Origin: an uncultured Bacteroidales bacterium
GTDB taxonomy: Bacteria; Bacteroidota; Bacteroidia; Bacteroidales; SZUA-534
Reading direction: 5' to 3'
NCBI GenBank assembly: GCA_965370965.1
Contig: CBDUWQ010000002.1
Location: 1 to 53,840, forward strand
Length of the DNA: 53,840 nucleotides
Shown here: positions 10,854 through 31,807 of the stretch, piece by piece
Numbering within the stretch: the stretch's first letter is position 1
How the letters are laid out: each line of letters starts with the position of its first letter
Translations under genes and position numbers: made by a program
The notes under the pieces: generated by a model
What the model was told of the DNA's origin: nothing
The model's database searches: none
The model's input: the letters and a program-made list of their open reading frames with translations, nothing else

Positions 10854-11807
10854 TCAGTCATGTGTTGTTTCATCCATAACATGATAATGAGGTCGTTTTT
10901 TCGATTCATCGAATAAAAAACCAATATAGTCGCTCATAATTCCTAAAACAAAAAACTGAATACTAAACATTGCGCTCATAAGTACAACAATTGTTGTATA
11001 ACCTGGCGATGGTTGCCCCATAAATCGCATTACTACAGAAACTAAGCCTACAATAATACTTAAAAAAGCAAACAATAATCCGGTATAAATGCCTATTCGT
11101 AATGGAGCTTTTGTTAAAGCTGAAATTGCTGAAAACGAAAATACTACAAGTTTTAAAAATGAATACTTGCTTTCTCCGGCAACTCTCTTGGGTGCAATAA
11201 ATGGCAATTTCTCTTTATTAAATCCTATTATTTGAATAATCCCTCGTAAAAAACGCGTACGCTCTCTATAATCATTTTTTAAAATATTAACTACCCTTTT
11301 TGATAATAAGAAAAAATCGGAAGCATTTGGTTCAATAGTAACATTTGTCATTTTATTTAAAATGCCATAAAAGAGTTTCGACATAAGGTTTTTTTGAATT
11401 CCCCCATCTTTTCTATCTTCTCTAATCATATTTATTATGTCAGCACCATTTTTATAAGTAGCCACCATATCTTTTAAACAACTTGGTGGATGCTGTAAAT
11501 CACTGTCCATACATACTATTGCATCTGCATTTGAGTAGTCAAGCCCTGCAAGCATTGCAGCTTCATGTCCAAAATTTCTTGAGAAGTTTAGTATTTTTAT
11601 GTTATTGTCATTTTTGGCATAATCGCGCAATATTTTGATACTATTATCTGAGCTGCCATCATTTACAAAAATAATTTGATAAGTAATATCTAATAATTCC
11701 AGCTCCTTTTTGAGCACCGGATAAAAGTATGGCAATGATTCTTGCTCATTATATACTGATACTACAACGCAAAGGTTTACTTCGGTCATTCTAACTGTGT
11801 TTTTCAT
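10854..11807 (-). CDS. GT2 polyprenyl-phosphate glycosyltransferase (GtrB/CsbB/ArnC/DPM1-like)
   Basis: GT-A motifs VVSVYNEQ, VNDGSSDNS and DSDLQHPP are followed by two C-terminal TM helices (LRIGIYTGLLFAFLSIIVGLV, TTIVVLMSAMFSIQFFVLGIM). That layout is typical of the lipid-phosphate-sugar synthases. An alternative ATG at 11789 would remove the 17-nt overlap with the upstream gene. Confidence 0.85.
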   Translation of the reverse strand: MKNTVRMTEVNLCVVVSVYNEQESLPYFYPVLKKELELLDITYQIIFVNDGSSDNSIKILRDYAKNDNNIKILNFSRNFGHEAAMLAGLDYSNADAIVCMDSDLQHPPSCLKDMVATYKNGADIINMIREDRKDGGIQKNLMSKLFYGILNKMTNVTIEPNASDFFLLSKRVVNILKNDYRERTRFLRGIIQIIGFNKEKLPFIAPKRVAGESKYSFLKLVVFSFSAISALTKAPLRIGIYTGLLFAFLSIIVGLVSVVMRFMGQPSPGYTTIVVLMSAMFSIQFFVLGIMSDYIGFLFDESKKRPHYHVMDETTHD

Positions 11808-12540
11808 TTTCTAAAAAAGTATTAGCAATATCATATTTCGGATTTCTACACTCATAAAATCTATATAAACCCAATGATTTATGAATTCCAAAAACATTGC
11901 ATTTTATATCAGAATAAAAATGCTTTAAAACCACCTCAATATCATTGGCACTATTAACATGTTCATGATATAGTAGTGTTGAGTATTTTAAATTGTACTT
12001 GAATTTAAATTCAAGTCCTGTAGTAAACATCCACCCAAGTTTCCACAAAATTGTACCCTCATTAGGAATAGCAACTCGTAATGTTCCTCCTTTATTAAGT
12101 AGTGTGCATGTTTTGGCGACTACATAGGGTAAATTTGTAATATGCTCAAATGTTGCAACAGATGTAATTCTTTCATATTTTTTATTCTCTATTTCACTAA
12201 TGTCTGTATAAATTGAGTTAATTTTTTTAAGTTCAGGTGCGTCCTTAAATAAATCTTTAAAAGGCTCAATTATGTCATAAACAGTATCTGCTTCATATTG
12301 CAATTGGTTTAGTGTTCCGGCTCCAATCTCTAATGTACTCTCAGGTATTTTATTTTTCAAGTCGGCAGCGACCTTTTTATGCATCCACGCTTCCATTTTT
12401 TGAGAAAGTGAAGCAGCAGATGTTCCTCCATCACGGTTACTTTTATAATGATTAGAATAAATTTGCTGATATGCCTCAGGTAAAATTGACCTCTGTTTTG
12501 GGAATTCATGCATAATTGTCTGATGTGTTTTTTCAGTCAT
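11791..12540 (-). CDS. Class I SAM-dependent methyltransferase
   Basis: 249 aa with motif I LEIGAGTLNQL and a post-I acidic residue. The start ATG lies 1 nt after the upstream stop (TGA-T-ATG). Confidence 0.65.
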   Translation of the reverse strand: MTEKTHQTIMHEFPKQRSILPEAYQQIYSNHYKSNRDGGTSAASLSQKMEAWMHKKVAADLKNKIPESTLEIGAGTLNQLQYEADTVYDIIEPFKDLFKDAPELKKINSIYTDISEIENKKYERITSVATFEHITNLPYVVAKTCTLLNKGGTLRVAIPNEGTILWKLGWMFTTGLEFKFKYNLKYSTLLYHEHVNSANDIEVVLKHFYSDIKCNVFGIHKSLGLYRFYECRNPKYDIANTFLENEKHS

Positions 12541-12541: not shown

Positions 12542-14404
12542 TCATTTAAGTATTACATCAACAAAATTAGAGTTATTCAAATGTGAAATATTTATAGTAT
12601 TCATATTAATATCATCAGCTATTATTTTAACAGGTTTAAAATAGTTGTTAAAATTCCAATATTTATATCTAACATAAGCCTGTTTATTGTTGGAATAAAA
12701 TAGTTTGTTGTTTACTGAATAAGAACTTGAATTATGAGCAAAAGAGATTGTAAAATCTTTATATGATGAGTAATTATAGCAAACTATACTGTCAGAAAGT
12801 ATTATAGTATTTATTGAATCAACAATTGACTTTTGAGATATGGGTCCAAAGGCTATAAACCTATCCATATCTTTCTTACTATAATTATATTTTAAATAGT
12901 ATATATTTTCTCTTTTATTGTTAAGGGCATTTATAAGTTTGTTTTTTGATTTGATAAATTTAATATTCTTATTTGTTTTTAGATGAATATAATTATCCCA
13001 TTTATAGCCTTGACTATACATGTAACTTATTTTTGAATTTTTGTATAGGTTTGGAGAATATACAAAGGCATTTTCAGGCAATGATTTAAATTCATCAGTC
13101 TCAATAAACTCATCAATACATTTGAAAGTATACAATGGCTGCTGAAGGTCTTTAACTGCATGGTAATTAATGTAATCAGTTAAAATTGAACCAATACTAA
13201 TTACAATACCAATTATAGTAATTAAAACTCTTTTTATAATTGAATTTTGTAAAAATGAAACTAATGAGAAGATAATAGTAATTGCAAAAACGACTGAAAA
13301 GAAGCCAAATAATGTTGTAATATAATTATCCATTCCCGGATATTGATATGTATATTTTTCGGTTAATGCTAACGGTATTTGTGGTATATAAATAAATAAA
13401 ACGGCTGCTATAAAAATAATCAGAATCCTTTTTATTTCTTTAATTTTCATAGAATTTAAAAATACAAAAGAGATGCTGCCTATAACTATAGCCTTTATAT
13501 ACCACAAATAATTTGCTGTTTCAAGTATATAACCTAAGTTTTGAATATGATTTTTTAATAGTGGACTTGTGTGCCAAAAAACGGATTTTCCAAAAAAGAA
13601 AAAATAGCAAGGATATGCTCCTCTGGAAAGATCAAAAATTGTATTTAGTCCATCATAAAATTTAAATCCATTAGCTATAGATGTTCCTGAATAATCCGGT
13701 GGATAATATAATCTATAAGCAAAATAGGAAATTACATAAACTAAACCTGTAATAAAAAAAGGTGTCGATACTTTTATAATATTTGATAGTTTGTTTTTTA
13801 TAAAGGCATGCCTTATCTTGTTACTATAATTCAAACTTGATAGAATAATAAGTGGAGCATACAATAAATAAACTTCGTAAAAAATTAAACCTGTAACAAA
13901 AAATACTATTGATAGAATTCTATGTTTTTTAGTATATGATTTGCTATATTTTAGTGCATAATAAATTGATGATAAAACAAAAATAAAAGAGCCTGTAAAA
14001 TACCATTGGAATGATACAATTGGATTATTTCGACCTTTTATGGTAATGAATGTTAAAAGGAGAATATATAATAAATAAGTTATCCATTTGTTGTTAAATA
14101 ATTGTTTAATAATAGCACTTAACAGAATCAAATTTATTGTTAATAGAATAATATTGATTGTTTTTATTACTATTAAGTTATGTATTAAGTATGGTAAGTT
14201 GTAAAGTGGTTTTGTTAACAAAAAATAGAAACGCCCGGCTCTTTCTGCGTAATTTACAGCATCACTCTTGTAATTTTTAATTAAGCCGGATATGAGAAAT
14301 TCGGCATCGTCGCCTGTAGCAATACCTGTTTTAATAAATGGAATTAATACAATAGCTGTTATTGAAGAAAGTAATAAAAAAAGAAATACTTTTTCTGTTT
14401 TCAT
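12542..14404 (-). CDS. Polytopic membrane protein, putative GT-C-type glycosyltransferase (ArnT/PMT/YfhO-like), function uncertain
   Basis: 620 aa. It has roughly 12 predicted TM helices followed by a soluble tail of about 200 aa. An acidic motif, GIATGDDAEF, sits in the first loop, as in GT-C enzymes. It lies in the same sub-operon as a GtrB-like GT2. The coding sequence is extremely AT-rich. Confidence 0.55.
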   Translation of the reverse strand: MKTEKVFLFLLLSSITAIVLIPFIKTGIATGDDAEFLISGLIKNYKSDAVNYAERAGRFYFLLTKPLYNLPYLIHNLIVIKTINIILLTINLILLSAIIKQLFNNKWITYLLYILLLTFITIKGRNNPIVSFQWYFTGSFIFVLSSIYYALKYSKSYTKKHRILSIVFFVTGLIFYEVYLLYAPLIILSSLNYSNKIRHAFIKNKLSNIIKVSTPFFITGLVYVISYFAYRLYYPPDYSGTSIANGFKFYDGLNTIFDLSRGAYPCYFFFFGKSVFWHTSPLLKNHIQNLGYILETANYLWYIKAIVIGSISFVFLNSMKIKEIKRILIIFIAAVLFIYIPQIPLALTEKYTYQYPGMDNYITTLFGFFSVVFAITIIFSLVSFLQNSIIKRVLITIIGIVISIGSILTDYINYHAVKDLQQPLYTFKCIDEFIETDEFKSLPENAFVYSPNLYKNSKISYMYSQGYKWDNYIHLKTNKNIKFIKSKNKLINALNNKRENIYYLKYNYSKKDMDRFIAFGPISQKSIVDSINTIILSDSIVCYNYSSYKDFTISFAHNSSSYSVNNKLFYSNNKQAYVRYKYWNFNNYFKPVKIIADDINMNTINISHLNNSNFVDVILK

Positions 14405-14665: not shown

Positions 14666-17600
14666 TTATTCTACTCTTTTCCAATTTTTTAAATTAAATA
14701 TATTATTGGTTACTTCAAAATGTTTGTACACCTTAAGTGTTCTTTGTTCAAGCATATGGCTTTCCCAAGGAGTAAAAATAGTTTGCAGTATTCTGTATGC
14801 TGAATCTATTTTTGTTGGATCATTTTCATTAAAGATAATAGCTGGTGCATCAGCATTACTCATTAAGCGCCAGTCTTCTTTAAGTGGTCCATGTGAATTA
14901 AAATCTTTTGTTAATAATAAAGCATTGAGTCTCCAGTAATATCGTTCTCTTATTTTTGTTAAATCATCTTTATCCCATTTAACAGGCGATTCAAAATCAA
15001 GAGGCCCATCATATTGATACCAAGTTGCCCCATGGTCTGAAACTATGACAATTTTTGTATTGTCGTAAACATCATTGGCTTTCATCCATTTAATCCAAAT
15101 GCTGAATTGTTTAATAAACCATTTGTTATTTTCATATGGTGAAACATTGTTAACCATTTTTCCATTATCGGTTATAATACTCCATGGATTGTGAAGTGCA
15201 TGGAAATGAATATAAATAAAACTTGGTTTATCAGCATTAGTATTTGAAATATATGGCCAAAGTCGGGCAAAGTTGAAATTTTTTAATACTGCAGGTTCAG
15301 TAGATTTATATTGATAGTGAGATAGCCATTTTTTATTGTTGTATATTTTAGGTTTAAAAAAAAGGGGTACGCTATAGAAAATGGCATTTTCATATAAACG
15401 TGTGTACCATATTTCGTGAAAAATACCTAAATGTAAATCATCAGACCATTTTCTCCAACTATCGTCCCATTTGGGAATAAAAGTGTCGAATTGGCTTTTG
15501 TCTATTCCAGAAAGGTGCATTTTGGTACTGGAATATGTGTAACCTTTCGATTTTACTTTTTGAACAAATAGATTGGAAACTTTGGTTATCTTTTCTTTAA
15601 TGGTATGTCCATTATCTTTATTCATCCATGTTACAGAATATTTATGTCCACCAAATAAAGATGTAAGGGATGAGTGAGTATAGTTAGAATGAGATAATGT
15701 GTTGGGATACCATATAAATCCCTCAAAAGTTTCTTTTAGTTCAGGATTCTCCTCGATTATTTGTCTTATAAACCATCCTTGAAATCCATCAGCTAAAAAA
15801 TATATTATATTTTGTTTATCTTTTGAGAAAGCGATTTCTCCTTGCATTGAATTAGCACCTAATTCTGTGTTTATTTTAAAGAAGAATCCAGTTTTTGCGG
15901 TTTTGTATAAACTATTCCCTATTAGAAAAATATTGAGCAAAACTAATACACCGATAATGGCTTTTGTGTATTTTTTGCAATAAACCCATCTCACACCTAT
16001 AAAAACACCAATAAGTAAAAATGCCTCAAGTATATAATTAATTATTGGTGCAGCAAGTTTCTCTTGTTCGGCAAACCTCGATTCTTGCAACGACCCTAAA
16101 TTGATAGGAATTACTGAGCTGTAAATAAATGTTAGTGTAGCGATTACAAGTACAAACAGCAACCATATTCTTTTAATTTTTTTTGGAAGAACAGCAAAAA
16201 GGATTATTACAGTGGTTAAGCTGATTAGAAATAGGTTGAAATTATTTTTTAAAATCTTAATTGCCGGAAAATCAAATGTTTCAGGTGATGATGAAAATAC
16301 AAGTAGTGGATTCCAGAAGAATATAAGGCCAACAATATATAATGTGGCTAATATGTATATAAGCCAGTTGGATTTTGCAGATGTTGCAAGTTTAATTTTA
16401 CGATAATTGAAATAATACGGAATAGTAATTAGTGAAAAAAGAATACCTGACAGAACGAAATTCGACAAAGTGCTATTCTCAACCGTAATGTTAATATTGG
16501 ACATGCTAAGCAAAATTTCTTTGCCGCCAAGGAATACTATTAGGTTAAATATTTGGCAGATAAAGATAAATATTAACAAAAATGAGGTAATGTGTAAAAG
16601 AATGGGTTTTGTGTATTTTGCCATTCGCGTGGTGTATAAAAAACCTATGATTTGCAAAGGAATAAGGGCTGTTATGGAAAGCGCACTGAGGGTTGTATTT
16701 ACCCCTGTAAAATACAATTCACCTGCCAAATAAAAATAAAATGTTAAAAACAGAATCGAAAAATAGATTTTGGGTTTTACCTGAATTTTTGAGATAAGTG
16801 GTTTGTAGTGGTTAAATACCAAAATTGATATACCCGCAAATACTGTCAATATAAAACTGCCAGCTATTACTAAAACAATCCGTAAAATAATATCAGCGTA
16901 ACTATTATTTAGCCTTGCCCAGTTTAATTGGCTAAGTACTGCAACAACAGCCAATACAATAAATGTGCGCTTCAATTTCGGGAGCAATGGACTAACCTGT
17001 GTTTTTAAATCGGCAAACCTAATTACGGTACAGCTTTGTTGCTTTTCTACTTTTCTAAACACTTCGGGGTTTGTAATAAACATCCTAAAAAAGCTAAACA
17101 CATTGTTCATGGTCCAGTAAAGCACCAAGCCCGCCGGTAGTTTAAACAATAGTATAAGGAATATACCTGCTACAATAAGCATCTGTTTGCGTTCCGATGT
17201 GTCGCCATTGCGAGTATAAAAATATGCAGTTAACAGGTTTATTAATGTCATGGCAATAGGCAATATGTTTATTGGGCCAAACAGGGCATCGGGTGCGGCA
17301 AGGTCATTAATAAACCAAAAACTGATACCTGCCAGAGGTTCAAATCCTTCCAGAAATTGGTAAGCAGCAATAAAAAATGGTATCTGCAACAGCAGGCTCA
17401 ATATTGGAATTAAAGCTCGCAACGGGCTATAGTTGTGCTGCCTGTTTAGTGTTTTTAAATAGTAATATCTTTCTTGTCCTTTGTAGCACCGTTTTATCTC
17501 ATCAACCAAAGGTTTCATTTTGTGTTTTACCGCATCGTCACGCTTTTTTGCTTTTTCAATTAAAATAAAAATGGGCAGTAAAAGCAGCGAGATGACAAAA

Positions 17601-17710
17601 CTCAGCAATATAATAGATAACCCATAATTATTAGTTAGGCTGTAACTAAACAGAAACAATTGTTTGATTATGAAAATGAAAGGGGATAGTATTATTTCAA
17701 CAGTATTCAT
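14666..17710 (-). CDS. YidC/Oxa1-like insertase core :: polytopic TM region :: LtaS/sulfatase-like (alkaline-phosphatase superfamily) domain, paralog 3 of 3
   Basis: 1014 aa. Residues 1-215 align motif by motif with the YidC core: YGLSIILLSFVISLLLLPI, a basic coiled region, NYSPLRALIPILSLLLQIPFFIAAY, FWFINDLAAPD, ILPIAMTLINLL and LPAGLVLYWTMNNVFSFF. About 11 TM helices follow. The C-terminal domain carries sulfatase-type motifs: IIYFLADGFQGW, YPNTLSHSNYTHSS, FIYIHFHALHNPW and IVIVSDHGA. Confidence 0.85.
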   Translation of the reverse strand: MNTVEIILSPFIFIIKQLFLFSYSLTNNYGLSIILLSFVISLLLLPIFILIEKAKKRDDAVKHKMKPLVDEIKRCYKGQERYYYLKTLNRQHNYSPLRALIPILSLLLQIPFFIAAYQFLEGFEPLAGISFWFINDLAAPDALFGPINILPIAMTLINLLTAYFYTRNGDTSERKQMLIVAGIFLILLFKLPAGLVLYWTMNNVFSFFRMFITNPEVFRKVEKQQSCTVIRFADLKTQVSPLLPKLKRTFIVLAVVAVLSQLNWARLNNSYADIILRIVLVIAGSFILTVFAGISILVFNHYKPLISKIQVKPKIYFSILFLTFYFYLAGELYFTGVNTTLSALSITALIPLQIIGFLYTTRMAKYTKPILLHITSFLLIFIFICQIFNLIVFLGGKEILLSMSNINITVENSTLSNFVLSGILFSLITIPYYFNYRKIKLATSAKSNWLIYILATLYIVGLIFFWNPLLVFSSSPETFDFPAIKILKNNFNLFLISLTTVIILFAVLPKKIKRIWLLFVLVIATLTFIYSSVIPINLGSLQESRFAEQEKLAAPIINYILEAFLLIGVFIGVRWVYCKKYTKAIIGVLVLLNIFLIGNSLYKTAKTGFFFKINTELGANSMQGEIAFSKDKQNIIYFLADGFQGWFIRQIIEENPELKETFEGFIWYPNTLSHSNYTHSSLTSLFGGHKYSVTWMNKDNGHTIKEKITKVSNLFVQKVKSKGYTYSSTKMHLSGIDKSQFDTFIPKWDDSWRKWSDDLHLGIFHEIWYTRLYENAIFYSVPLFFKPKIYNNKKWLSHYQYKSTEPAVLKNFNFARLWPYISNTNADKPSFIYIHFHALHNPWSIITDNGKMVNNVSPYENNKWFIKQFSIWIKWMKANDVYDNTKIVIVSDHGATWYQYDGPLDFESPVKWDKDDLTKIRERYYWRLNALLLTKDFNSHGPLKEDWRLMSNADAPAIIFNENDPTKIDSAYRILQTIFTPWESHMLEQRTLKVYKHFEVTNNIFNLKNWKRVE

Positions 17711-17716
17711 ATCTGA

Positions 17717-20700
17717 CTATTTTATTTTTTTCCAATTTTTCATATCATAAACATAGTCTTTAACTTCAAAAACAAGATTATTGTGATACTTCTTTCTTGT
17801 TCGCAAATCGGTATGCCATTTTGTATAGTAGGTAGTTATTGTTCTTGAGGCAGAATCGACTTTAGTTGGGTCATTCTCATCAAAAGCAATGGCATAAGCA
17901 TCATTATTGCACATTAACCTCCAATCTTCACGCATTGGTTTTTTTGATTTAAAGTCTTTAACCATCAAAAGGGAGTTTAGTCTCATAAATTCCATCATAG
18001 AAACTTTTTTATCTTTTGTCCAGATTATAGGTGCATCGTAATCTTCAATTTTTTTATGGTAGTGCCACCATGACGGACCGTGGTCTGCAACCAAGATAAT
18101 CTTGGTGTTATCGTAAACATCATTTTCTTTCATCCATTTTAGCCACTTACCAAAAAGGTAGGTAAACCATTGTTGATTTTCATAAGGCGAAACATCTCTT
18201 ACAAATTTATTGTCATCTGATATTAAATCCCAAGGCACATGAGTAAACATTGAATGGATGTAAATGAAATTTGGCTTTTCACTATCACTTACTGATATTT
18301 GAGGTAATAGGCGAATGAAATTGTATTTGTTCAATAAACTTGAATTAATGGGAATATTACTATTTACTAACCACTTGTTTTTGTTATATATTTTTGGTTT
18401 TAAAAATAGCGGTGCACCTGAAAACAACGCATTCTCCCATAATTGAGTGTACCACATTTCATTCTGAAAACCAATGTCTAAATATGAGTTCCAGGTATCA
18501 GACCATGTTGGCAAATAATTATCAATCAAGCCGTGATCTACATCAGAATATTTTAAGCTATTGCCTGTAAAATAATAACCTTTATCGTTGATTTTATTGT
18601 AAAATACTTCTGTTGATTTAGTAATTTTTTGAGTTATTGTGTGTTCATCGTCAGAGTTCATGTTGGCAATGGTAAAGCCGGAACCACTTGTCATTGAAGG
18701 AACAGAAGAATAAGTGTAATTTGATGTTGAGATTGTGTTTGGATACCAAATAAAGCCATTATAAATATCAAGTAAGGTAGAATCTTCTTTTAGGATATCA
18801 TGCATATACCATCCTTGAGCACCATCAATAATAAAATACAAAACATTTTTTTGTGTTTTTGAAAAAGGTATTTTATTTAAATAGGAGTTGGTTTCTTGTT
18901 GATTATCATCAATATCATGTTTTTTTGAAAAGAAATCGTCTGTGCGAAAGGATAAAAACAAACTTTGCCCAATTAAGAACAGATTGAGGGCAATAAGCGC
19001 AACTAATATTTTACGGTTTAATTGTTTTTTTACTAACCATGTACTGCCTGCAAAAACTGCCATTAACAATAAGGCCTCTAAAAAATAATAAATAGCTTTT
19101 GCTGCAAGTCTTTCTTCATGAGAGAAAAAGTTTACTTGAAGAGTGCCTACATCGTAAGGAATAATTGAACTGTATAAAAAAACTATTATTGAAATAGAAA
19201 GACCCAATATTTGCAATAAATATTTTAACTTTTTTGGAGTAATTAAGTATAGCCCAATACCGATAGCGATTGTTATAATAAAGGGTGTAAAGTTATTAGA
19301 AAAGAAGTTAATTGCCGGAAAACTAAAATTTTGTGGAAATGATGAATAAACAATTAGTGGATTCCAATAAAATACCAAACCGTCAATATAGATAAGTGAC
19401 AATAAATATGTTGCCGAGTGTATTGGAGGTAATAATTTAAAAGAATTTCTGTTGTATTTTAAATAAAATGGCAATGCTAATAGTGTAAATAAAATGCCCT
19501 GCAACCAAACTATATAGTAAGAGCTTTCGCTAACACTATATAACAGGTTAAAGAAGTGAAAATCTGTTGGTTTACCGCTATTTAACAATACCTTTATACC
19601 AATAGTTTGACTTAATAGTATTGTTATTAGCAAAAACGAGACTATCTGATATACATAATAGTTACTCTTTTTTGCAATACGTATAAAATAAAACATACCA
19701 GCAAATTGTACGAGCAATACAAACAATAATGCAACAACAGATAGCGTAGTGTTAGTGCCAGTAAAATAGTATTGAGATGAGAAATGAAAATAGAGCGATA
19801 AAAACAGTAAGGTAAAATAGAGTATTGGAGGTATTTCTATTTTTGATACTATTGGTTTGAGATAATCAGCAATAACAATTGCAATCCAAACAAATACAGT
19901 AAGAACAAAGCTTCCAATTAATGCACTAATTAACCTTATAACAATGCTATCAAAACTATTTTGAGTGGCCCAATTTAGTTGACTTAGAACACTTATTATT
20001 ATTAATGTGATTAATGATTTTTTTAGTATAGATGATTTTTGTGCAAAATTGATTCTAATTTTAATAAAGCTGATAGTATCTGCTGATTTCCTTTTGCCTA
20101 CTTTTCTAAACACTTCGGGGTTTGTAATAAACATCCTAAAAAAGCTAAATACATTGTTCATGGTCCAGTAAAGCACCAAGCCCGCCGGCAGTTTAAACAA
20201 TAGTATAAGGAATATACCTGCTACAATAAGCATCTGTTTGCGTTCCGATGTGTCGCCATTGCGAGTATAAAAGTAAGCAGTTAACAGGTTTATTAATGTC
20301 ATGGCAATAGGCAATATGTTTATTGCACCAAACAGGGCATCGGGTGCAGCAAGGTTTTTAATAAACCAAAATTGCACCCCCTGCATAGGTTCAAAATGCT
20401 CTAAAAATTGGTAAGCAGCTATAAAAAACGGTATCTGCAACAGCAAACTTAATATTGGTATTAAGGCACGTAAAGGGCTGTAGTTATGCTGTCTGTTTAA
20501 GGTTTTTAAATAGTAATACCGCTCTTGCCCTTTGTAGCAACGCTTAATTTCGTTAAGCTGCGGTTTCATTTTGCGCTTTACGGCATCGTCTTTCTTTTTT
20601 GCTTTTTCAATTAAAATAAAAATGGGTAGTAACAGTGCCGATATGGCAAAGCTTAAAAGTATAATTGCCCAACCATAGTTGCCTGTTATGTTATAGCTAA

Positions 20701-20761
20701 ACAGAAACAACTGTTTAATTATAAAAATAAAAGGTGATATTATAAGTTCAAATACATTCAT
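17717..20761 (-). CDS. YidC/Oxa1-like :: polytopic :: LtaS/sulfatase-like fusion, paralog 2 of 3
   Basis: 1014 aa. The N-terminal roughly 215 aa are near-identical to the neighbouring paralogs. C-terminal motifs are VLYFIIDGAQGW, YPNTISTSNYTYSS, FIYIHSMFTHVPW and IILVADHGP. It is separated from the next gene by 6 bp. Confidence 0.85.
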   Translation of the reverse strand: MNVFELIISPFIFIIKQLFLFSYNITGNYGWAIILLSFAISALLLPIFILIEKAKKKDDAVKRKMKPQLNEIKRCYKGQERYYYLKTLNRQHNYSPLRALIPILSLLLQIPFFIAAYQFLEHFEPMQGVQFWFIKNLAAPDALFGAINILPIAMTLINLLTAYFYTRNGDTSERKQMLIVAGIFLILLFKLPAGLVLYWTMNNVFSFFRMFITNPEVFRKVGKRKSADTISFIKIRINFAQKSSILKKSLITLIIISVLSQLNWATQNSFDSIVIRLISALIGSFVLTVFVWIAIVIADYLKPIVSKIEIPPILYFTLLFLSLYFHFSSQYYFTGTNTTLSVVALLFVLLVQFAGMFYFIRIAKKSNYYVYQIVSFLLITILLSQTIGIKVLLNSGKPTDFHFFNLLYSVSESSYYIVWLQGILFTLLALPFYLKYNRNSFKLLPPIHSATYLLSLIYIDGLVFYWNPLIVYSSFPQNFSFPAINFFSNNFTPFIITIAIGIGLYLITPKKLKYLLQILGLSISIIVFLYSSIIPYDVGTLQVNFFSHEERLAAKAIYYFLEALLLMAVFAGSTWLVKKQLNRKILVALIALNLFLIGQSLFLSFRTDDFFSKKHDIDDNQQETNSYLNKIPFSKTQKNVLYFIIDGAQGWYMHDILKEDSTLLDIYNGFIWYPNTISTSNYTYSSVPSMTSGSGFTIANMNSDDEHTITQKITKSTEVFYNKINDKGYYFTGNSLKYSDVDHGLIDNYLPTWSDTWNSYLDIGFQNEMWYTQLWENALFSGAPLFLKPKIYNKNKWLVNSNIPINSSLLNKYNFIRLLPQISVSDSEKPNFIYIHSMFTHVPWDLISDDNKFVRDVSPYENQQWFTYLFGKWLKWMKENDVYDNTKIILVADHGPSWWHYHKKIEDYDAPIIWTKDKKVSMMEFMRLNSLLMVKDFKSKKPMREDWRLMCNNDAYAIAFDENDPTKVDSASRTITTYYTKWHTDLRTRKKYHNNLVFEVKDYVYDMKNWKKIK

Positions 20762-20768
20762 AATAGGT

Positions 20769-23700
20769 TTATTCTATCCGTTTCCAATTATTTGCATCAA
20801 AAATATTATCTTTTACAGAATATGTATAGCTAATTGAAAATTTATTCATACTTGTCAGATTTTTCGACCACGATGAAATACTACCTTTTAATACTCTTGA
20901 AGTTTGCAAGGTATCATTTGCCGGGTTATTTTTTTCATTAAAAGCAATACTGTTAACATCGGCATTGCTCATAAAACGCCAGTCTGTTTTTAATGTATCG
21001 TTACAATTAAAATCTTTAACAAGTAATAGTGCATTTAAACTTATTACATCGTTCATTGGCACTTTTTCGGGTGTATTATTTTTAAACGGCATGTCTATAT
21101 CTAAACTCAGCTTTCGAGTATTAATACCATGGTCTGAAACAATTATTATTTTGGTATTATCATAAATACCTTTCTTTTTCATCCAATTAAACCATTTCGC
21201 CAATGTTTCTAAAGTCCACTCTGCTGTTTTATGCGATGGCACATCGTAAATAATAGAGCCGGTAGAATCAATTATATTCCACGGAAAATGGGGTACTAAA
21301 GAGTGTAGCACAACAAAAGCGGGTTTACTATTAACTGAAGTTGAAATAAACGGCAATAACCTTAAAAAATTATACTTTTTTGTTATCAGGTTATTTGCAT
21401 TTTTATCGGGTTTTTTAAACCAATTACCTTTATTATATAATTTGGGTTTCAAAAAAAGAGGCGCACTAAAAAACAAAGCGTTATTTATTAAAATATAATA
21501 ATCTTTATCATGAACCTCACTAATATTAAGCTTTTCATTATAAATACTCCACTTACTATTCCATTCGGGAATAAATGCATCAAAATTCACTTTGTTTATA
21601 TTTACATACGATAATTTATTTGCAATAAAATTAAAACCTTTACTATGCGCTTTGTTTGATAAAGATTGCATTGCTCCGGTAATTTTTTCAGTAATAGTAT
21701 GGTTTTTGTCCAAATCTAACTTTTTAGGTAAATAGTTGTGTCCTCCTATTATAGGCGCAATTGATGTTGTTGTAATTTTTGATACTGACAATGTGTTAGG
21801 ATACCATACAAAACCCGCTAATTCATTTTTAAGGTTGCTGTTTTCATTAAGTAATTTATTCATAGTCCATCCCTGAAACATATCGGCAATTACTATTACA
21901 ACATTTTTTTTTGTTGATGAAAAATCAATTGTAGAATTATTAATATGTAATTCTCCTTTTGATTTAAAAAAACTGCCCGAATTTAATGCTATTAAAATAC
22001 TATGTGCAACAAGGGTAACATTAATTAGCAGTAAGCCCAAAATAATTTTTTTTAAGTGCTTTTTTTGTGTAATAAGCCATTTTACTGTAAAAAATATAAA
22101 AATAATAAATCCACTTTCTGTTAAAAAGTAGTATAACGGTTTTGCAATATTATCTTGTTCTCCATATTTATTAACGAGCAGAACGCCAACATCAAGTGGA
22201 AAAATTGTGCTGTTTAAAAACGAAACTACTGTTATCCCCAACATTATCCATAAACCTATAAACTTGTTTTTTGGTGGAATTAAATAGTAAGCAGCCATTA
22301 AACCTACTGTACTAATTATAAAAAAAATAAGGTTGTTGGTTAGTATTTCAATACCCTGGAATTTGAATATTTCAGGAAATGAGGAAAAAACTACCAACGG
22401 ATTCCATAAAAACATAAATCCGCAGATATATAATACTGACAGTAAATAAATTACCCAATTTGAGTCGGTTTTAGGAATATTTATATTGGTTTTTTTTATA
22501 TAGAATGGTAATGCTATTAAAATAAAGAAAATGCCTGGCAAAACAACATCACTTAAGTTGCCAAAGCTACCCAGCAGACTCATCAACCCTAATGTTTTAT
22601 CAATTGTTACTCCACTTAATAATATGTATATATTAATAAGTTGAAGTAAAAACAGGGTTATCAGTAAAAAAAAGGTTAAAATAAAAAGTGGTTTTGAAGT
22701 AGTGTTTTTTGCCCTTTTAAAATATATAAAGCCTATAAATTGCAAGGGTAATAATACTATTAATGAAACAACACTTAACCGTATGTTAAACCCCGAGTAA
22801 TAAAATAGCGATGCCAAATAAAAATATATTATTGCAAAAATAAGTGAGAAAAACAGACTCGGACGTACTGTAAATACTCCTTTTTGGTTTACTCCTATTT
22901 TAATAATCTTATAATACAACTCTTTTGCCGTAATAGAAATTAAACCGTAATACAAACTCGAAACAGTAGCAAGCAACAAGGTAATTACTACGCTAAGTAC
23001 TACCGACAAAAGCAAACGTAAAATAAAACCATTAAAGCTAAATTTTAATGCCCAGTTAATTTGCGATAAAACAGCAAATGTTAGTATGATAAAAAATGTA
23101 GTATTAAATACCGACCATAACTGTGTAAATAGTTTTTTTACAGATTTTACATTTATCGGTTCCTTTAGTTTATGAACAACTGTAAACAAGCCTATCAATA
23201 AAACAACACCTGCACATACTGCTACTATAAATAATAACCGTAACGCTAAACCATTAAAGCTGTTATTAAATATCCAATTTAATTGGCTCAATATACCCAA
23301 AACAGATAAAACATAAAATGTAACCTTTAGCTTTGGCAAAATTGTAATAAACCGCAATTTTATCTCTTTTAAGGTTAAAGTATTTCTGCTTTTTTTCTTT
23401 TCACTTTTCCTAAACACCTCGGGGTTTGTAATAAACAGCCTAAAAAAGCTAAACACGTTGTTCATTGTCCAGTAAAGCACTAAGCCCGCCGGCAGTTTAA
23501 ACAACAGTATAAGAAATATACCTGCTACAATAAGCATCTGTTTGCGCTCAGATGTGTCGCCATTGCGGGTGTAAAAATACGCAGTTAGCAGGTTTATTAA
23601 TGTCATGGCAATAGGCAATATGTTTATGGCACCAAACAGGGCATCGGGTGCGGCAAGGTTTTTAATAAACCAAAATTGCACCCCCTGCAAAGGTTCAAAA

Positions 23701-24065
23701 TGCTCTAAAAATTGATAAGCAGCTATAAAAAACGGTATCTGTAACAGCAAACTTAATATAGGTATTAATGCACGTAATGGGCTGTAGTTATGCTGTCTGT
23801 TTAAGGTTTTTAAATAGTAATACCGCTCTTGCCCTTTGTAGCAACGCTTAATCTCGTTAAGCAGGGGTTTCATTTTGCGCTTTACGGCATCGTCGCGTTT
23901 TTTTGCTTTTTCAATTATTATAAAAATGGGTAGTAATAGTGCCGATATGGCAAAGCTTAAAAGTATAATTGCCCAACCATAATTTTCGGTTAGTTGGTAG
24001 CCAAATAAAAACAGTTGCTTAATTATAAATATAAATGGTGATAGTATAATTTCGAATATGTTCAT
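20769..24065 (-). CDS. YidC/Oxa1-like :: polytopic :: LtaS/sulfatase-like fusion, paralog 1 of 3 (carries an extra two-helix unit)
   Basis: 1098 aa with the same N-terminal module. An LSQ(L/I)NW..SFNG..LRLL unit is duplicated. C-terminal motifs are VVIVIADMFQGW, YPNTLSVSKITTTS, FVVLHSLVPHFPW and IIIVSDHGI. It is separated from the next gene by 7 bp. Confidence 0.85.
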   Translation of the reverse strand: MNIFEIILSPFIFIIKQLFLFGYQLTENYGWAIILLSFAISALLLPIFIIIEKAKKRDDAVKRKMKPLLNEIKRCYKGQERYYYLKTLNRQHNYSPLRALIPILSLLLQIPFFIAAYQFLEHFEPLQGVQFWFIKNLAAPDALFGAINILPIAMTLINLLTAYFYTRNGDTSERKQMLIVAGIFLILLFKLPAGLVLYWTMNNVFSFFRLFITNPEVFRKSEKKKSRNTLTLKEIKLRFITILPKLKVTFYVLSVLGILSQLNWIFNNSFNGLALRLLFIVAVCAGVVLLIGLFTVVHKLKEPINVKSVKKLFTQLWSVFNTTFFIILTFAVLSQINWALKFSFNGFILRLLLSVVLSVVITLLLATVSSLYYGLISITAKELYYKIIKIGVNQKGVFTVRPSLFFSLIFAIIYFYLASLFYYSGFNIRLSVVSLIVLLPLQFIGFIYFKRAKNTTSKPLFILTFFLLITLFLLQLINIYILLSGVTIDKTLGLMSLLGSFGNLSDVVLPGIFFILIALPFYIKKTNINIPKTDSNWVIYLLSVLYICGFMFLWNPLVVFSSFPEIFKFQGIEILTNNLIFFIISTVGLMAAYYLIPPKNKFIGLWIMLGITVVSFLNSTIFPLDVGVLLVNKYGEQDNIAKPLYYFLTESGFIIFIFFTVKWLITQKKHLKKIILGLLLINVTLVAHSILIALNSGSFFKSKGELHINNSTIDFSSTKKNVVIVIADMFQGWTMNKLLNENSNLKNELAGFVWYPNTLSVSKITTTSIAPIIGGHNYLPKKLDLDKNHTITEKITGAMQSLSNKAHSKGFNFIANKLSYVNINKVNFDAFIPEWNSKWSIYNEKLNISEVHDKDYYILINNALFFSAPLFLKPKLYNKGNWFKKPDKNANNLITKKYNFLRLLPFISTSVNSKPAFVVLHSLVPHFPWNIIDSTGSIIYDVPSHKTAEWTLETLAKWFNWMKKKGIYDNTKIIIVSDHGINTRKLSLDIDMPFKNNTPEKVPMNDVISLNALLLVKDFNCNDTLKTDWRFMSNADVNSIAFNEKNNPANDTLQTSRVLKGSISSWSKNLTSMNKFSISYTYSVKDNIFDANNWKRIE

Positions 24066-24131
24066 TTAGTATCCTTGTTGTTTGCATCTGATTGCAATTA
24101 AATTTATGAAGAACAAGAGTTTTTTGTATTG

Positions 24132-24708: not shown

Positions 24709-25953
24709 TTAGTGGTTGTCATTCAAGCTGTCAACTATCTCCAAAATCTGATTTGCTGCTGTTTCGCCGGCTTTTCCAAAATTATAAACCGATTCGTTTT
24801 TAAGATCTTCAAGTTGCATGCTTGGAGGATTTTGTAATATTTCATTAACCATAATGCTAATTTTCTCAATATCGTTTTCGTCAAATATTTTTCCAAGACG
24901 AGACCTCTCGCGCATCTCCCACATTTCATAATCAAGCTCGCTCCCTTCAAATCCCTCAATGCTGTCAAATTCGGTTTTTAACAATAAAATTGGTTTTGAG
25001 TATAAAAATGCAAAGTCCCAAAATACTCCCGACAGGTCACCAATCATTAAATCGGCTTTTGCCATGCTCTCTGTTCCAAGCGGATTCCTGTCAATTGTAA
25101 TACGTAGTTCATCTTTAAAATGCTCTTCAATTTCGCCAATTTCTTTGGGAAAACTTACATAACTTTGTGGGTGCGGACGCAGTATAATATCGTATGTGCT
25201 ATCCTGTAAAAGGCTTTCAAAAAACTTAACCCCAAACCTGTTTATTATTGAATACTCCTTCCATGTTGGTGCAACAAGCACTACCTTGTTCTTTTTTTTA
25301 GGTTTTGCAAATGCTTTAACCTCGTCAAGCATAATATCGTAGTAGGTTAATCCGGTTTTTAAAAGCAGTTTTTTATCCGTTTCTCGCTTTTGTTCAAGCT
25401 TTTCAATACCCTCAATTTGATGTGGTCCCGAGCAAAATACCGAATCAAAATAGTCAAATGCAAATTTGCGATATGTAAAAATATCAATAGGTGCATGAAC
25501 AATATGCCCATAATGCCCAACATTTTTTGAGCGGCGAATCATCATTACATCCAACTGTGGGGTGGTCATACCCACAAACTTTGCTTTAAGCTTGTTTAAA
25601 TAAACCGATGTCATTGTTAAGTTACCAATAAATTTACTGTCGTAATACTCCGATTTGTAATCTAATCCTGGGTCGTCTTTGTCGGATGTTACATAGGCAC
25701 AGCGAACTTTTTTTTGCTCAAGTGCTTTAATTACAGGTAAAAAAACCGACCAATATTGTTTCCCCTCTGAGTAGAAAATAATGTCGGTGTTCTCAAAATC
25801 GTTGCTGTTCACAAAGCCTTTTCCCAGTATCAAGTTTTTTATTTTGTAAAAAAATCCGCGTAAAGCGAAACCTAATGTGGCAACCAATGCAATAATAATA
25901 TAAAGCAAAGCACTTGTTGAGGCGGGGTCAATGTAGAGTAAAATCATTTTCAT
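24709..25953 (-). CDS. CDP-glycerol glycerophosphotransferase (TagB/TagF) family protein with N-terminal TM anchor
   Basis: 414 aa with an N-terminal helix LYIIIALVATLGFAL. Family-like motifs are VLVAPTWKE, ILRPHPQ and MIGDLSGVFWDFAFLYSKPILL. It lies directly downstream of the phosphonate genes. Confidence 0.75.
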   Translation of the reverse strand: MKMILLYIDPASTSALLYIIIALVATLGFALRGFFYKIKNLILGKGFVNSNDFENTDIIFYSEGKQYWSVFLPVIKALEQKKVRCAYVTSDKDDPGLDYKSEYYDSKFIGNLTMTSVYLNKLKAKFVGMTTPQLDVMMIRRSKNVGHYGHIVHAPIDIFTYRKFAFDYFDSVFCSGPHQIEGIEKLEQKRETDKKLLLKTGLTYYDIMLDEVKAFAKPKKKNKVVLVAPTWKEYSIINRFGVKFFESLLQDSTYDIILRPHPQSYVSFPKEIGEIEEHFKDELRITIDRNPLGTESMAKADLMIGDLSGVFWDFAFLYSKPILLLKTEFDSIEGFEGSELDYEMWEMRERSRLGKIFDENDIEKISIMVNEILQNPPSMQLEDLKNESVYNFGKAGETAANQILEIVDSLNDNH

Positions 25954-26532: not shown

Positions 26533-27645
26533 TTATTTACTAAATATTTTTCCTAAAACCTCTTTCGTAACATACCTAGGGTTATTACTTAACCGCTCAG
26601 TATTTACATTGTTGATTATTACATTTTTATCAAATTTTGTAATTATCTCACTTATTGATATGCTAATACCTATGCTGTTAAAAAATATTTCAATTTTATT
26701 ATTCGACTCTTCAATATCAATACCCAATACATCCAAAACTTTATTAATCCTTGCCCTTACTGCCAATGCTCCCCTTTTATCATTACAATCGGTATTGGTT
26801 GCATCATAATTATAATTCATAAAAAAAGGCAAACTTAAAGCAACTGCATGTCCGTGAGGAATATCATAATAACTTGTAAACGCATACGATATTGCATGTG
26901 GGGCAGTGGTTTTTGTGATATTAATTGCTTTGCCTGCCAAAAACGAGGCTTCAAGCATCTGCTCTTTTGCAGGTTTATTGTTCTCTAAAACAGCCTTTTG
27001 CAGATTTTCCCAAATTAATTCAATAGCCTTTAAAGCATACACTTGCGATTCTGTAGTTGCATTTACGCTCCAAACCGATTCAACTGCCTGACAAAATGCA
27101 TCTAACCCTGTGCAAGCAGTTAGGTACTTATTTGCCGACATTGAAAACTCCGATGATAAATAGACATAATTGGGCAAAATGGCACTATGAGCCACCGAGT
27201 ATTTTACTTTATCAATATAAACAACAGCAAAATGTGTAGCCTCAGCTCCTGTTCCTGCTGTTGTAGGAATCGATAATAGCTGTGTTTTGTTATCGGTTAT
27301 TTGTGCTTTGCCAAGTACAATACTCTCCAAATCATTATTTTGATGAGCAAAAACACTAATTAGTTTTGCCATATCCAAAACACTTCCGCCACCTATTGCC
27401 ACTATAAGTTCATAATTACCTTGTTTAAAAAGTGCGATACCTTTTTGTAGGTCTTTAAGTTGTGGATTGATATTGAAATCAGAAAAAGAGGTATATTCAA
27501 TGTTTTCAAGCAACATATCAATAAACCTGTCTCCGCCTGTTGCAGAATAAGATTTTTTCCCTCTTATCAGAAAAACTTTTTGCGGATTTATTTTGCTAAT
27601 CTGTTGTTTTAATTCCGATAGCTTTTTTATAACTATTTGACCCAT
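26533..27645 (-). CDS. Iron-containing (group III) alcohol dehydrogenase, phosphonoacetaldehyde-reductase-like
   Basis: 370 aa with motifs AIGGGSVLDMAK, PTTAGTGAE and HGHAVA. Its position directly after PEP mutase and phosphonopyruvate decarboxylase parallels the PhpC/FomC/DhpG context. Confidence 0.75.
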   Translation of the reverse strand: MGQIVIKKLSELKQQISKINPQKVFLIRGKKSYSATGGDRFIDMLLENIEYTSFSDFNINPQLKDLQKGIALFKQGNYELIVAIGGGSVLDMAKLISVFAHQNNDLESIVLGKAQITDNKTQLLSIPTTAGTGAEATHFAVVYIDKVKYSVAHSAILPNYVYLSSEFSMSANKYLTACTGLDAFCQAVESVWSVNATTESQVYALKAIELIWENLQKAVLENNKPAKEQMLEASFLAGKAINITKTTAPHAISYAFTSYYDIPHGHAVALSLPFFMNYNYDATNTDCNDKRGALAVRARINKVLDVLGIDIEESNNKIEIFFNSIGISISISEIITKFDKNVIINNVNTERLSNNPRYVTKEVLGKIFSK

Positions 27646-27834: not shown

Positions 27835-28962
27835 TTAATCTTCAAGGTTTTTCATAAAATCCTTTTTATTATCAACAGGTTTTATGGTTGGTCGTCCCAA
27901 ATTATCGCGCGAACCCACCCTCACTTTTATCTCAATTAAAGCAGGACAAGTATCTTTAGAAATCCCCTTTAATGCCAAATCAAGCTCTTTGGCTATTGAA
28001 ACCGTTGCTGCCGATTTATATTTGCTTGCCATGGCAAGAGCAGGAATATCAATATTAAAGCTTACTGTAGGCTGTCCACCAACCGACTCGTGCGCTCCGT
28101 TATTAATAATTATATGAACAAAATTTTTCGGCTCCCGGCTCCCGGTAATAGCTAACGAGCCCATATGCATTAGTAAAGCACCATCGCCATCAAAACAGAT
28201 AACTTTTTTGTTAGGTTTGGCCAATGCTATTCCCACAGCAATTTGACTTGAATGACCCATAGAACCAACTGTTAAAAAATCGGAGTGGTGTGGCTGATTT
28301 AACTCTTCTCTACACTCAAAAAGTTCGCGCGATGTTTTTCCTGTGGTAGAAACAATAATCTCATCGCCTGATAACTGATTAACAATTTGCTTAATTGCAT
28401 CTTCGCGGCAAAGCTCAAAATTATTTTCAACACTCCCCTTAATGGAATACTTATCGAACGTATTTTTTTTGATAACTAAGGCATGTGGTGTATTCTCTTT
28501 TTTTATTTCTGCCAAAGCATTATTCAGTTGAGTTTGTGCTTCTGCTTCATCTTGACTTAATACGGTATAAGGAATTTTCATTGCTTTAAGCAAATTCAGG
28601 GTAACCTCGCCCTGTGTAATATGCTGTGGTTCATCTTTTATACCAGGCTCACCACGCCAACCAATCATTAACAAAACAGGTATATTATAAACCTGCTTAT
28701 CGGTTAACGAAAGCAATGGATTTACCGCATTGCCAATACCCGAATTTTGCATATACACCATGGGTATTTTATTGGTAGCCATGTGGTAACCGGCAGCCAA
28801 AGCAATAGCATTGCCCTCATTTGCTGCAATTATATGGTTTTCAACCGGTGCATTATCGGTAATATATGCACAAATATTCTTTAATAAAGAATCGGGAATA
28901 CCGCTAAAAAACTCAACTTGGTTATTTACCAGCCAGCTATAAAAATTTTTAGGATTAATCAT
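27835..28962 (-). CDS. ppd: Phosphonopyruvate decarboxylase (TPP-dependent)
   Basis: 375 aa with the TPP motif GDGALLMHMGSLAITG..IIINNGAHESVGGQ. The start overlaps the PEP-mutase stop (TAATG). Confidence 0.88.
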   Translation of the reverse strand: MINPKNFYSWLVNNQVEFFSGIPDSLLKNICAYITDNAPVENHIIAANEGNAIALAAGYHMATNKIPMVYMQNSGIGNAVNPLLSLTDKQVYNIPVLLMIGWRGEPGIKDEPQHITQGEVTLNLLKAMKIPYTVLSQDEAEAQTQLNNALAEIKKENTPHALVIKKNTFDKYSIKGSVENNFELCREDAIKQIVNQLSGDEIIVSTTGKTSRELFECREELNQPHHSDFLTVGSMGHSSQIAVGIALAKPNKKVICFDGDGALLMHMGSLAITGSREPKNFVHIIINNGAHESVGGQPTVSFNIDIPALAMASKYKSAATVSIAKELDLALKGISKDTCPALIEIKVRVGSRDNLGRPTIKPVDNKKDFMKNLED

Positions 28963-31779: not shown

Positions 31780-31807
31780 AAAAAAAAATTTACTAAAGAA
31801 TAATTCT

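Follow-up and report, generated by a model that had tools for sequence, protein, structure and literature searches.

YidC-like/sulfatase-like fusion proteins of a Bacteroidales phosphonate operon as candidate envelope phosph(on)otransferases

Why would a membrane protein insertase fold be joined to a phosphotransferase-like ectodomain in one polypeptide, and why would such a gene stand in three tandem copies? The question is raised by a 53,840-nucleotide stretch of contig CBDUWQ010000002.1 (GenBank assembly GCA_965370965.1) from an uncultured Bacteroidales bacterium, referred to here as the window. Three adjacent genes on its minus strand, designated A (20769..24065), B (17717..20761), and C (14666..17710), each encode a protein that begins with a YidC-like module, continues as a large polytopic membrane body, and ends in a domain of the alkaline phosphatase (AP) superfamily. 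We propose that these fusions are paralogous extracytoplasmic phosph(on)otransferases of the LtaS/EptA type that carry out the last step of an envelope phosphonate pathway, an account to which, taken whole, we assign a probability of about one half. Its components differ in firmness. That the proteins belong to an envelope phosph(on)otransferase system working with a TagF-like enzyme is likely, while a translocation step through the YidC-like groove is a tentative suggestion that may well prove wrong.

Architecture of the fusion proteins

A first-pass annotation of the window, made from the sequence alone, had described three back-to-back genes with short spacers, each starting with a complete YidC core. 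All three are intact minus-strand open reading frames (ORFs) separated by gaps of 7 and 6 nt, and every motif quoted in that annotation is found in the translations. Gene A encodes 1098 amino acids (aa) and genes B and C encode 1014 aa each with the same overall architecture. In all three proteins the Pfam family 60KD_IMP (PF02096, gathering score 35) matches residues 29-214 over profile positions 1-162 of 163, with 90-93 bits (89.8 in gene A) and E values of ~1e-26, and the NCBIfam model TIGR03592 for the YidC/Oxa1 C-terminal domain (cut-off 84.3) is matched with 97-100 bits. Intact ORFs and strong E-values rule out chance similarity or pseudogenes. The equivalog models for housekeeping YidC (PRK01318, PRK02944, and others) are matched with at best 73-80 bits against cut-offs of 365-1094, which is 5- to 15-fold short.

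The module occupies residues 1-218 (minus strand, 23412..24065 in gene A and 20108..20761 in gene B). Gene B was chosen for modeling, and an AlphaFold2 model built from a 62-sequence alignment reached a mean predicted local distance difference test (pLDDT) score of 85.8 and a predicted template modeling (pTM) score of 0.64. In the model, an amphipathic helix (residues 3-26) is followed by TM1 and the hairpin (helices 29-75 and 79-91, of which 29-52 form the transmembrane (TM) segment and 53-95 the cytoplasmic coiled hairpin), TM2 (96-121), TM3 (149-166), TM4 (171-190), and TM5 (193-213); a low-confidence basic linker (222-230) comes after the module. Foldseek superimposes it on the solved Bacillus halodurans YidC structure (3wo7_B) with a TM-score of 0.71 and a root-mean-square deviation of 3.8 A over 233 columns. 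The spacing, given in the first-pass annotation as that of Escherichia coli YidC around residues 355-530, is borne out by phmmer against PDB sequences, which aligns residues 18-209 to E. coli residues 343-527. Short-form YidC proteins (B. halodurans YidC2, B. subtilis SpoIIIJ and MisCA, and the cores of the E. coli and Thermotoga maritima proteins) share the five-TM fold and cytoplasmic coiled hairpin with the module. Unlike them, the module has no groove arginine and has an unusually conserved C1 hairpin, and its coding sequence is not a housekeeping gene but is joined to, or lies next to, genes for envelope-modifying transferases.

The groove arginine (R366 in E. coli, R72 in B. halodurans) is a hallmark of YidC, Oxa1, and Alb3. 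In the phmmer alignment Ser41 of the module stands opposite R366, and this serine is invariant among the 62 family members. Across 135 modules from six phyla, stand-alone ones included, the position holds serine in 80, threonine in 42, and asparagine in 13, and never arginine or lysine. The groove otherwise keeps a set of near-universal polar residues, S37, Q109, T155, N158, Y165, Y198, W199, N202, and N203, of which Q109, Y198, N202, and N203 align with E. coli YidC Q429, Y516, S520, and N521. Judged from the 62-sequence alignment, no part of the fusion protein is more conserved than the YidC-like module: 28% of its columns are invariant (21% for the cytoplasmic hairpin taken by itself), as compared to 7% for the ectodomain and 2% for the TM body.

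The modules of genes A, B, and C are also far closer to one another than the rest of these proteins. They share 88-93% protein identity and 82-91% DNA identity, as against 35-45% for the remainder of the proteins, and codon identity, too, is higher in the modules than elsewhere in the genes; in a further comparison the module of gene A is 94% and 90% identical to those of genes B and C. Among relatives the same pattern holds, with modules 81-94% identical within one genome and 64-72% between genomes, and bodies 28-43% identical in all comparisons. Homogenized modules on old, diverged bodies point to concerted evolution of the module among paralogs. In one relative, Bacteroidetes bacterium HGW-Bacteroidetes-4 (locus L033, 7150-7708 and 10001-10583), the match to the module is confined in both copies to residues 1-88 and 147-220, some 25 codons separate the two segments, and the TM2/P2 region may be shortened or strongly diverged there.

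The first-pass annotation had offered two ideas for the module, a cis-acting insertase for the protein's own body and a groove for presenting or scrambling a lipid-linked donor. We treat both as live options. In its general form the former holds that the module is a dedicated insertase or chaperone of the Oxa1 type, working in cis when fused and in trans when split, which inserts and folds its own large polytopic transferase and perhaps the anchor of the TagF-like partner, and has no part in the chemistry. The module does retain a complete five-TM core, coiled hairpin, and amphipathic helix and is matched over the full length of the profile, and each paralog has a module of its own, orphan Treponema genes included, which fits a cis role. 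The groove arginine, however, is gone in 135 of 135 modules, and one would expect looser constraint on a helper domain than on the catalytic one, yet here it is by far the most constrained segment, including the cytoplasmic hairpin. In addition, we know of no bacterial precedent for a private insertase per client, and the housekeeping YidC and Sec systems should manage this task. We therefore consider a dedicated insertase rather unlikely, and the split systems discussed below bear on it further.

After the module, the first-pass annotation counted about 11 further TM helices. The gene B model and hydropathy both give 11, at residues 243-267, 273-307, 312-330, 338-364, 368-393, 415-436, 449-474, 491-507, 510-533, 556-578, and 582-605, with the ectodomain starting at about residue 625. 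The first two of these helices pair as a hairpin whose turn is polar (SQLNW...F.D.I..R), and this hairpin unit together with a 9-TM body covers residues 232-606 (18944..20068, minus strand). Genes B and C have one such unit, of about 75 aa, and gene A has two in tandem (residues ~232-306 and 307-384; 22914..23372, minus strand), with SQ[LI]NW at residues 260 and 334. Counted by eye, relatives have none (949-993 aa), one (~1010 aa), two (~1100-1130 aa), or four (~1230 aa); gain or loss of a two-TM hairpin leaves the topology intact. When the gene B sequence is compared to the model helices, Lys/Arg-rich loops fall at alternate positions, which by the positive-inside rule places the C-terminus of the YidC-like module in the cytoplasm and the ectodomain, 11 TM helices later, outside it.

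The body itself resembles nothing that we could find. Modeled alone (residues 226-615) it reaches a pLDDT of 91 and a pTM of 0.82, and this isolated body has no Foldseek match in the PDB with E<1, the best TM-score being ~0.2. Neither Pfam nor NCBIfam has a family that matches it, and when body and ectodomain were searched together by sequence against the PDB, the only match was a marginal one to a sulfatase, with none for the body. With no match at E<1, we do not assign the body to the GT-C, MOP-flippase, LtaS/EptA 5-TM, or any other known fold, and as modeled it differs from the 5-TM domain of LtaS, EptA, and PbgA.

For the C-terminal part, the sulfatase/LtaS-type domain that the first-pass annotation had read from motifs is recovered as an AP-superfamily fold by AlphaFold2 and Foldseek, with a weak Pfam match. 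In gene B it spans residues 625-1014 (17720..18889, minus strand). The Pfam family Sulfatase (PF00884, gathering score 25) is matched above threshold by gene C, the top score of the trio at 32.5 bits, and just below it by gene B (21.3) and gene A (23.5). Foldseek hits in the PDB, with E values of 2e-7 to 2e-5, are PbgA/YejM, MCR-1 (9nww), LtaS (2w8d, 4uoo), and many S1 sulfatases; for PbgA/YejM (6xlp, 6vat) the TM-score to the target is 0.52-0.54. All 62 sequences retain D646, N675, T683, H841, and D893-H894 (gene B numbering). With a profile built from the ectodomain, the H..PW...DHG segment aligns to sulfatases and to the Listeria and Staphylococcus aureus LtaS proteins, the LtaS match being marginal (E 4e-4). 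T683 lies 37 residues after D646 and is the putative nucleophile by its invariance and spacing.

The same matches allow for another view of the ectodomain, in which the fusions are PbgA-like lipid sensors, or else scavenging sulfatases or phosphonate-ester hydrolases whose link to phosphonate genes is incidental. PbgA/YejM and S1 sulfatases are indeed the top Foldseek matches, and the Pfam domain bears the name Sulfatase. However, the residues at the putative metal site and nucleophile position do not vary in any of the 62 sequences, a regular-expression search finds no [CS]xPxR formylglycine motif in the three ectodomains, and the neighboring genes are biosynthetic (PEP mutase, nucleotidyltransferase, TagF-like, and glycosyltransferase genes; PEP is phosphoenolpyruvate) rather than catabolic or transport genes. 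In view of the absent motif and the biosynthetic synteny we reject a sulfatase or hydrolase identity, and we regard a non-catalytic or hydrolytic role as a whole as highly improbable.

Operon partners and relatives

The genes preceding the trio on the minus strand encode a short phosphonate pathway. The first is a fusion of a cytidylyltransferase and a PEP mutase (28962..30263; domains CTP_transf_like and PEP_mutase; TIGR02320 416 bits, cut-off 319.55), followed by a phosphonopyruvate decarboxylase (27835..28962; TIGR03297 506 bits, cut-off 312.5) and an Fe-dependent alcohol dehydrogenase (Fe-ADH; 26533..27645), which has Fe-ADH domains and reaches none of the NCBIfam equivalog cut-offs. PhpC-type enzymes, which are Fe-ADH proteins, convert phosphonoacetaldehyde to 2-hydroxyethylphosphonate (HEP) (PMC8942020). 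By analogy with these and from its operon position, the Fe-ADH of the window is a putative phosphonoacetaldehyde reductase that would yield HEP. Next comes the TagF-like transferase (24709..25953; Glyphos_transf, Pfam PF04464, 37.9 bits), which begins with a single-TM anchor carrying the motif YIDPASTS. The order cytidylyltransferase-PEP mutase, decarboxylase, Fe-ADH, TagF-like gene, and then one to three (possibly four) fusions is conserved.

The fusion architecture had struck the first-pass annotation as without characterized precedent and its triplication as exceptional. Literature searches found no characterization, and the triplication is real in the window; neither is as singular as first supposed. 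Relatives have one to three tandem copies by gene calls, possibly four in locus L009 by a rough tblastn count, and hundreds of species carry the architecture. A profile-free search with gene C minus its YidC part returned 2671 representatives with E<1e-3 and 135 with E<1e-30. Distant matches (26-34% identity) keep an N-terminal 60KD_IMP domain, and others, of ~735-750 aa, do not have it. A scan of one genome per GTDB species gave more than 599 pattern matches, and at least 470 of these genomic stretches proved to hold relatives. They fall in Bacteroidota (Bacteroidales), Chlorobiota, Spirochaetes (many of them Treponema), Firmicutes (Clostridiales and Phascolarctobacterium), Actinobacteria (an Atopobiaceae-like bacterium), and Proteobacteria (a Shewanellaceae metagenome-assembled genome (MAG) whose version is shorter at 781 aa). 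The architecture is already in databases under the names "membrane protein insertase YidC" and "YidC/Oxa1 family membrane protein insertase".

Draconibacterium halophilum (locus L001; record CP048409) has the gene order of the window with three fusions, followed by a 662-aa membrane protein, an MBOAT gene, and an AlgX-type gene. Two fusions in the conserved order are found in a Bacteroidales MAG (L004), and Bacteroidetes MAG loci L002 and L003 have a single fusion and nothing else conserved, giving a minimal five-gene operon that contains no other flippase candidate. Among the 42 genome-scan loci whose flanks extend to 3 kb or more, a TagF-like gene is present in 36, in 31 of them within 300 nt of the fusion, and a PEP mutase gene in 21. 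The head-group pathway varies: Fe-ADH genes of the HEP type lie near Bacteroidales fusions, and aminotransferase genes of the 2-aminoethylphosphonate (AEP) type near several Treponema fusions. In Treponema brennaborense (L080), no head-group pathway is nearby, and the fusions and TagF-like gene stand among GT4, GT8, GT2, DegT, and YfhO genes.

In other genomes the parts of the fusion are encoded separately. Split operons in L005 and L006 consist of a TM-sulfatase (736-737 aa), a membrane peptide (55-68 aa), a TagF-like protein (371-375 aa), and a YidC-like protein (208-219 aa), and in L005 a fused copy is present as well. Locus L086 combines a stand-alone YidC-like gene and a TagF-like gene with a different 597-aa membrane protein bearing the AP-type motif AGDHGP, all beside an AEP pathway. 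The occurrence of fused and split triads across phyla argues, in the manner of a Rosetta stone, that the YidC-like module, the TagF-like enzyme, and the TM AP-superfamily enzyme belong together. In the Spirochaetaceae MAG locus L006 the split triad adjoins (14176-18580) a 1009-aa PPDK_N/PEP-utilizers protein, a Peptidase_C26/GATase protein, and an NTP_transferase, a set that resembles the Campylobacter jejuni O-methyl phosphoramidate pathway (Cj1418/1417/1416). The YidC-like system may thus also install phosphoramidate. Locus L085 (3469-8681) has an AEP pathway (Ppm fusion, Ppd, NTP transferase, and aminotransferase) followed by a 71-aa anchor peptide and a 226-aa YidC-like gene; the next gene is an unrelated giant WD40/pentapeptide gene, an insertion sequence transposase is nearby, and no transferase gene is present in the 8-kb flanks. 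The L085 cluster may be truncated, or its transferases may be encoded elsewhere.

These split systems return us to the dedicated insertase. In L005 and L006 the split YidC-like gene adjoins the gene for the cytoplasmic TagF-like enzyme and not that for the TM-sulfatase, and in L085 the YidC-like gene and anchor peptide sit by AEP genes with no transferase gene in the 8-kb flanks, both of which count against an insertase devoted to the transferase. On the other side, the TagF-like partners have a very short N-tail and a single TM helix. A short N-tail with a single TM helix, as in Pf3 coat, is the classical YidC-only class of substrate.

This anchor is itself a recurrent feature. The motif [LF]YIDP[GA][ST][GT]S, in a short N-tail with a single TM helix, is found at the N-terminus of 61 of 68 TagF-like partners, and in split systems the anchor is a free-standing protein of 55-71 aa (L005, 6147-6314, minus strand; L006, 12218-12424; L085, 7773-7988). 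We know of no description of a YIDP-type anchor motif. Its recurrence could mean that the YidC fold serves as a docking platform, holding the YIDPxTxS anchor helix in its groove and so coupling the inner and outer transferases with no translocation. The retention of the motif in most partners and as a separate protein beside the YidC-like gene in split systems would fit such docking, as would the presence in Bacteroidales of one TagF-like gene per one to three (possibly four) fusions with homogenized modules, as for a shared partner. Against this, orphan fusions with no TagF-like neighbor retain a conserved module, the anchor variant (PASTS versus PGTGS) and the residue at the YidC arginine position show no covariation beyond phylogeny, and the translocation of the transferred group is left unexplained. 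Docking as the whole function of the module is, in our estimate, improbable.

The wider neighborhood of the trio contains further genes of possible envelope character. Downstream on the minus strand lie a 620-aa polytopic membrane protein (12542..14404), with no family match and kept downstream of the fusions in L024 and L033, and a 249-aa methyltransferase with a 317-aa PgfS/ArnC-like family 2 glycosyltransferase (GT2; together 10854..12540); these three may form a polyprenol-phosphate glycosylation set. The 662-aa protein of L001 occupies the same position and has no Pfam match, and tblastn did not confirm homology between it and the 620-aa protein. Divergent from the operon, on the plus strand (30337..32953), are a DltB-like MBOAT, below cut-off, and an AlgX-type SGNH protein, a pair that recurs beside fusions in Bacteroidales relatives. 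Taken together, the DltB-like, SGNH, GT2, methyltransferase, 620-aa membrane protein, LtaS-like, and TagF-like genes parallel those of teichoic acid synthesis and decoration, in a host that by its closest relatives is apparently diderm and Bacteroidales-like.

Some features of the window appear to be additions to the operon. Two overlapping small ORFs (76 and 98 aa; 24132-24658, minus strand) of toxin-antitoxin-like character lie between the TagF-like gene and gene A, and the 98-aa ORF has no NCBIfam match. In relatives the TagF-like gene directly abuts the first fusion, so that this pair looks inserted. Between the Fe-ADH and TagF-like genes is a gene of the PD-(D/E)XK_3 nuclease superfamily (26060-26464, minus strand; 134 aa, 137 bits); L001-L004 have no such gene there, and it represents another small insertion. 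ATPase genes lie on both flanks of the cluster: AAA_14 alone (7739-8932, minus strand), ATPase_2 plus DUF234 with a sub-threshold DUF4143 (9407-10741, plus strand), and AAA_14 plus DUF4143 (33051-34244, plus strand). ATPase genes recurring on either side may indicate that the region is variable or mobile. A scan of 14300-30500 for sigma-70 promoters and terminators gave the same counts as shuffled sequence and was uninformative on operon boundaries.

A proposed route for phosphonate installation

From the inventory of parts, their topology, the conserved residues of catalytic type, and the synteny described above, we infer the following mechanism. In the window, the PEP mutase, decarboxylase, and Fe-ADH would make HEP (AEP or other groups elsewhere), which the cytidylyltransferase domain would activate as a CMP-phosphonate. 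The TagF-like enzyme, working on the cytoplasmic side of the membrane, would then transfer the phosphonyl group to a membrane lipid acceptor. The arginine-less polar groove of the YidC-like module could ease passage of the head group to the outer leaflet, where the lipid would be handed to the 11-TM body. In the ectodomain, T683, beside a putative metal site formed by D646, D893, and H894, would take up the phosphonyl group as a covalent intermediate and pass it to an acceptor outside, such as a glycan hydroxyl or a growing chain, much as LtaS and EptA do with phosphatidylglycerol and phosphatidylethanolamine. The paralogs share one homogenized YidC-like donor side, and because their bodies and ectodomains are strongly diverged they probably differ in acceptor or, by analogy with LtaP and LtaS, act as primer and extender. 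The variety of head-group pathways near the fusions (HEP, AEP, phosphoramidate-like, or none nearby) fits a generic installer of CMP- or CDP-activated groups.

As to the groove step, we know of no three-component envelope system with an Oxa1-family fold as its translocating element. Three points make the step plausible. Scrambling of glycerophospholipids has been shown in vitro for E. coli YidC, Oxa1, and Get1, and in silico for every family member tested (PMC11047089); the minimal operon has no other flippase candidate; and the module is under extreme constraint, which speaks for a specific molecular role. More doubtful than the translocation step itself is the stronger claim that the arginine-less module is the first Oxa1-family fold given over to small-molecule work, carrying or presenting a lipid-linked phosphonyl or phosphoryl head group between a docked TagF-like enzyme and the outward-facing LtaS-like transferase, and not acting as a protein insertase.

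Several points weigh against the proposed route. The Fe-ADH of the window reaches no equivalog cut-off, so that HEP as its product is a prediction, and the lipid carrier, acceptor, and transferred group are all putative. The equivalence of the catalytic residues to those of LtaS and sulfatases is aligned only for the H...DHG segment, and the best structural match of the ectodomain, PbgA/YejM, is mainly a lipid-binding regulator. As to translocation, the 11-TM body could itself be the translocator; a pure scramblase should need one copy per cell, yet each paralog retains the module. Contact between module and body is also putative; the whole-protein pTM of the model is 0.64, and a spacer of zero to four hairpin units lies between the two. 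Lastly, six Treponema loci (L051, L062, L064, L071, L074, and L076) have a fusion with no TagF-like gene within 10 kb. This orphan subclade has a single fusion gene with threonine at the YidC arginine position, and in L071 the gene (10388-12631) stands among housekeeping genes for HflX, FtsJ, an M23 peptidase, and chemotaxis.

Known systems and wider meaning

A comparison of the fusions with LtaS (S. aureus LtaS, Listeria LtaP and LtaS, and the four B. subtilis paralogs) shows both likeness and disparity. Both have a polytopic membrane part followed by an extracytoplasmic AP-superfamily domain, with a structural match (2w8d, 4uoo), a threonine (in the fusions, at the putative nucleophile position by a putative acidic/DH metal site), and several paralogs per genome; a DltB-like MBOAT gene and a polyprenol-phosphate GT2 gene lie near the fusions, as in teichoic acid decoration. 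In contrast, LtaS has five TM helices and no YidC module where the fusions have 11 plus a YidC-like core, and it uses bulk phosphatidylglycerol with no TagF-like partner. The hosts of the fusions are also mostly diderm, and their pathway makes a phosphonate.

EptA/MCR-1, PbgA/YejM, OpgB, and BcsG likewise possess a membrane-anchored periplasmic AP-superfamily domain, and full-length MCR-1 and PbgA are among the top Foldseek matches. EptA/MCR-1 enzymes move a phospho-alcohol head group off a lipid and onto an acceptor in the envelope, the reaction to which we liken that of the fusions. Compared to this group, the fusions have a larger and different TM domain, an N-terminal YidC-like module, and a TagF-like partner with nucleotide activation instead of bulk phosphatidylethanolamine or phosphatidylglycerol. 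PbgA in particular is not known as a transferase, whereas the fusions have invariant catalytic-type residues. With TagF/TagB and the three-component systems ArnC/ArnT, GtrABC, and CsbB/YfhO, the proposed route shares a logic in which a cytoplasmic transferase uses a nucleotide-activated donor, the product is translocated, and a second transfer takes place outside. The partner is a Glyphos_transf enzyme as in TagF, and a GT2 and a large membrane protein adjoin the cluster. Unlike TagF/TagB, this partner has the N-terminal YIDPxTxS single-TM anchor, and unlike the three-component systems, the outside enzyme is an AP-superfamily phosphotransferase and not a GT-C glycosyltransferase.

Our literature searches found no paper that describes a YidC-sulfatase fusion or a triad of YidC-like, TagF-like, and transferase proteins, and two papers on phosphonate genomics mention neither YidC nor TagF. 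How phosphonates come to be on cell-surface glycans is a recognized gap, and according to a 2019 paper the downstream phosphonyl tailoring steps "remain enigmatic" (PMC6697681). The locus offers concrete candidates for these enigmatic post-activation steps in the attachment of surface phosphonates such as AEP and HEP. Surface phosphonates influence phage and immune recognition as well as phosphorus cycling. The carriers number hundreds of species, among them Treponema from gut and mouth, Firmicutes from the rumen, and environmental Bacteroidales, and D. halophilum has a complete genome sequence. With regard to annotation, the label "membrane protein insertase YidC" on a protein of ~1000 aa hides a probable envelope-modifying enzyme.

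For the YidC/Oxa1 field, the modules constitute a large natural clade that is without the hallmark arginine, more constrained than the enzyme to which it is fused, and genetically tied to lipid and glycan chemistry, and which is a natural test of the recent claim that insertases double as lipid scramblases. If the module is indeed such a small-molecule carrier and not an insertase, the TagF-like, YidC-like, and LtaS-like proteins would together be an unrecognized machine, spread over multiple phyla, that in diderm bacteria such as Bacteroidales and Treponema builds phosphonate-bearing and possibly teichoic-acid-like surfaces.

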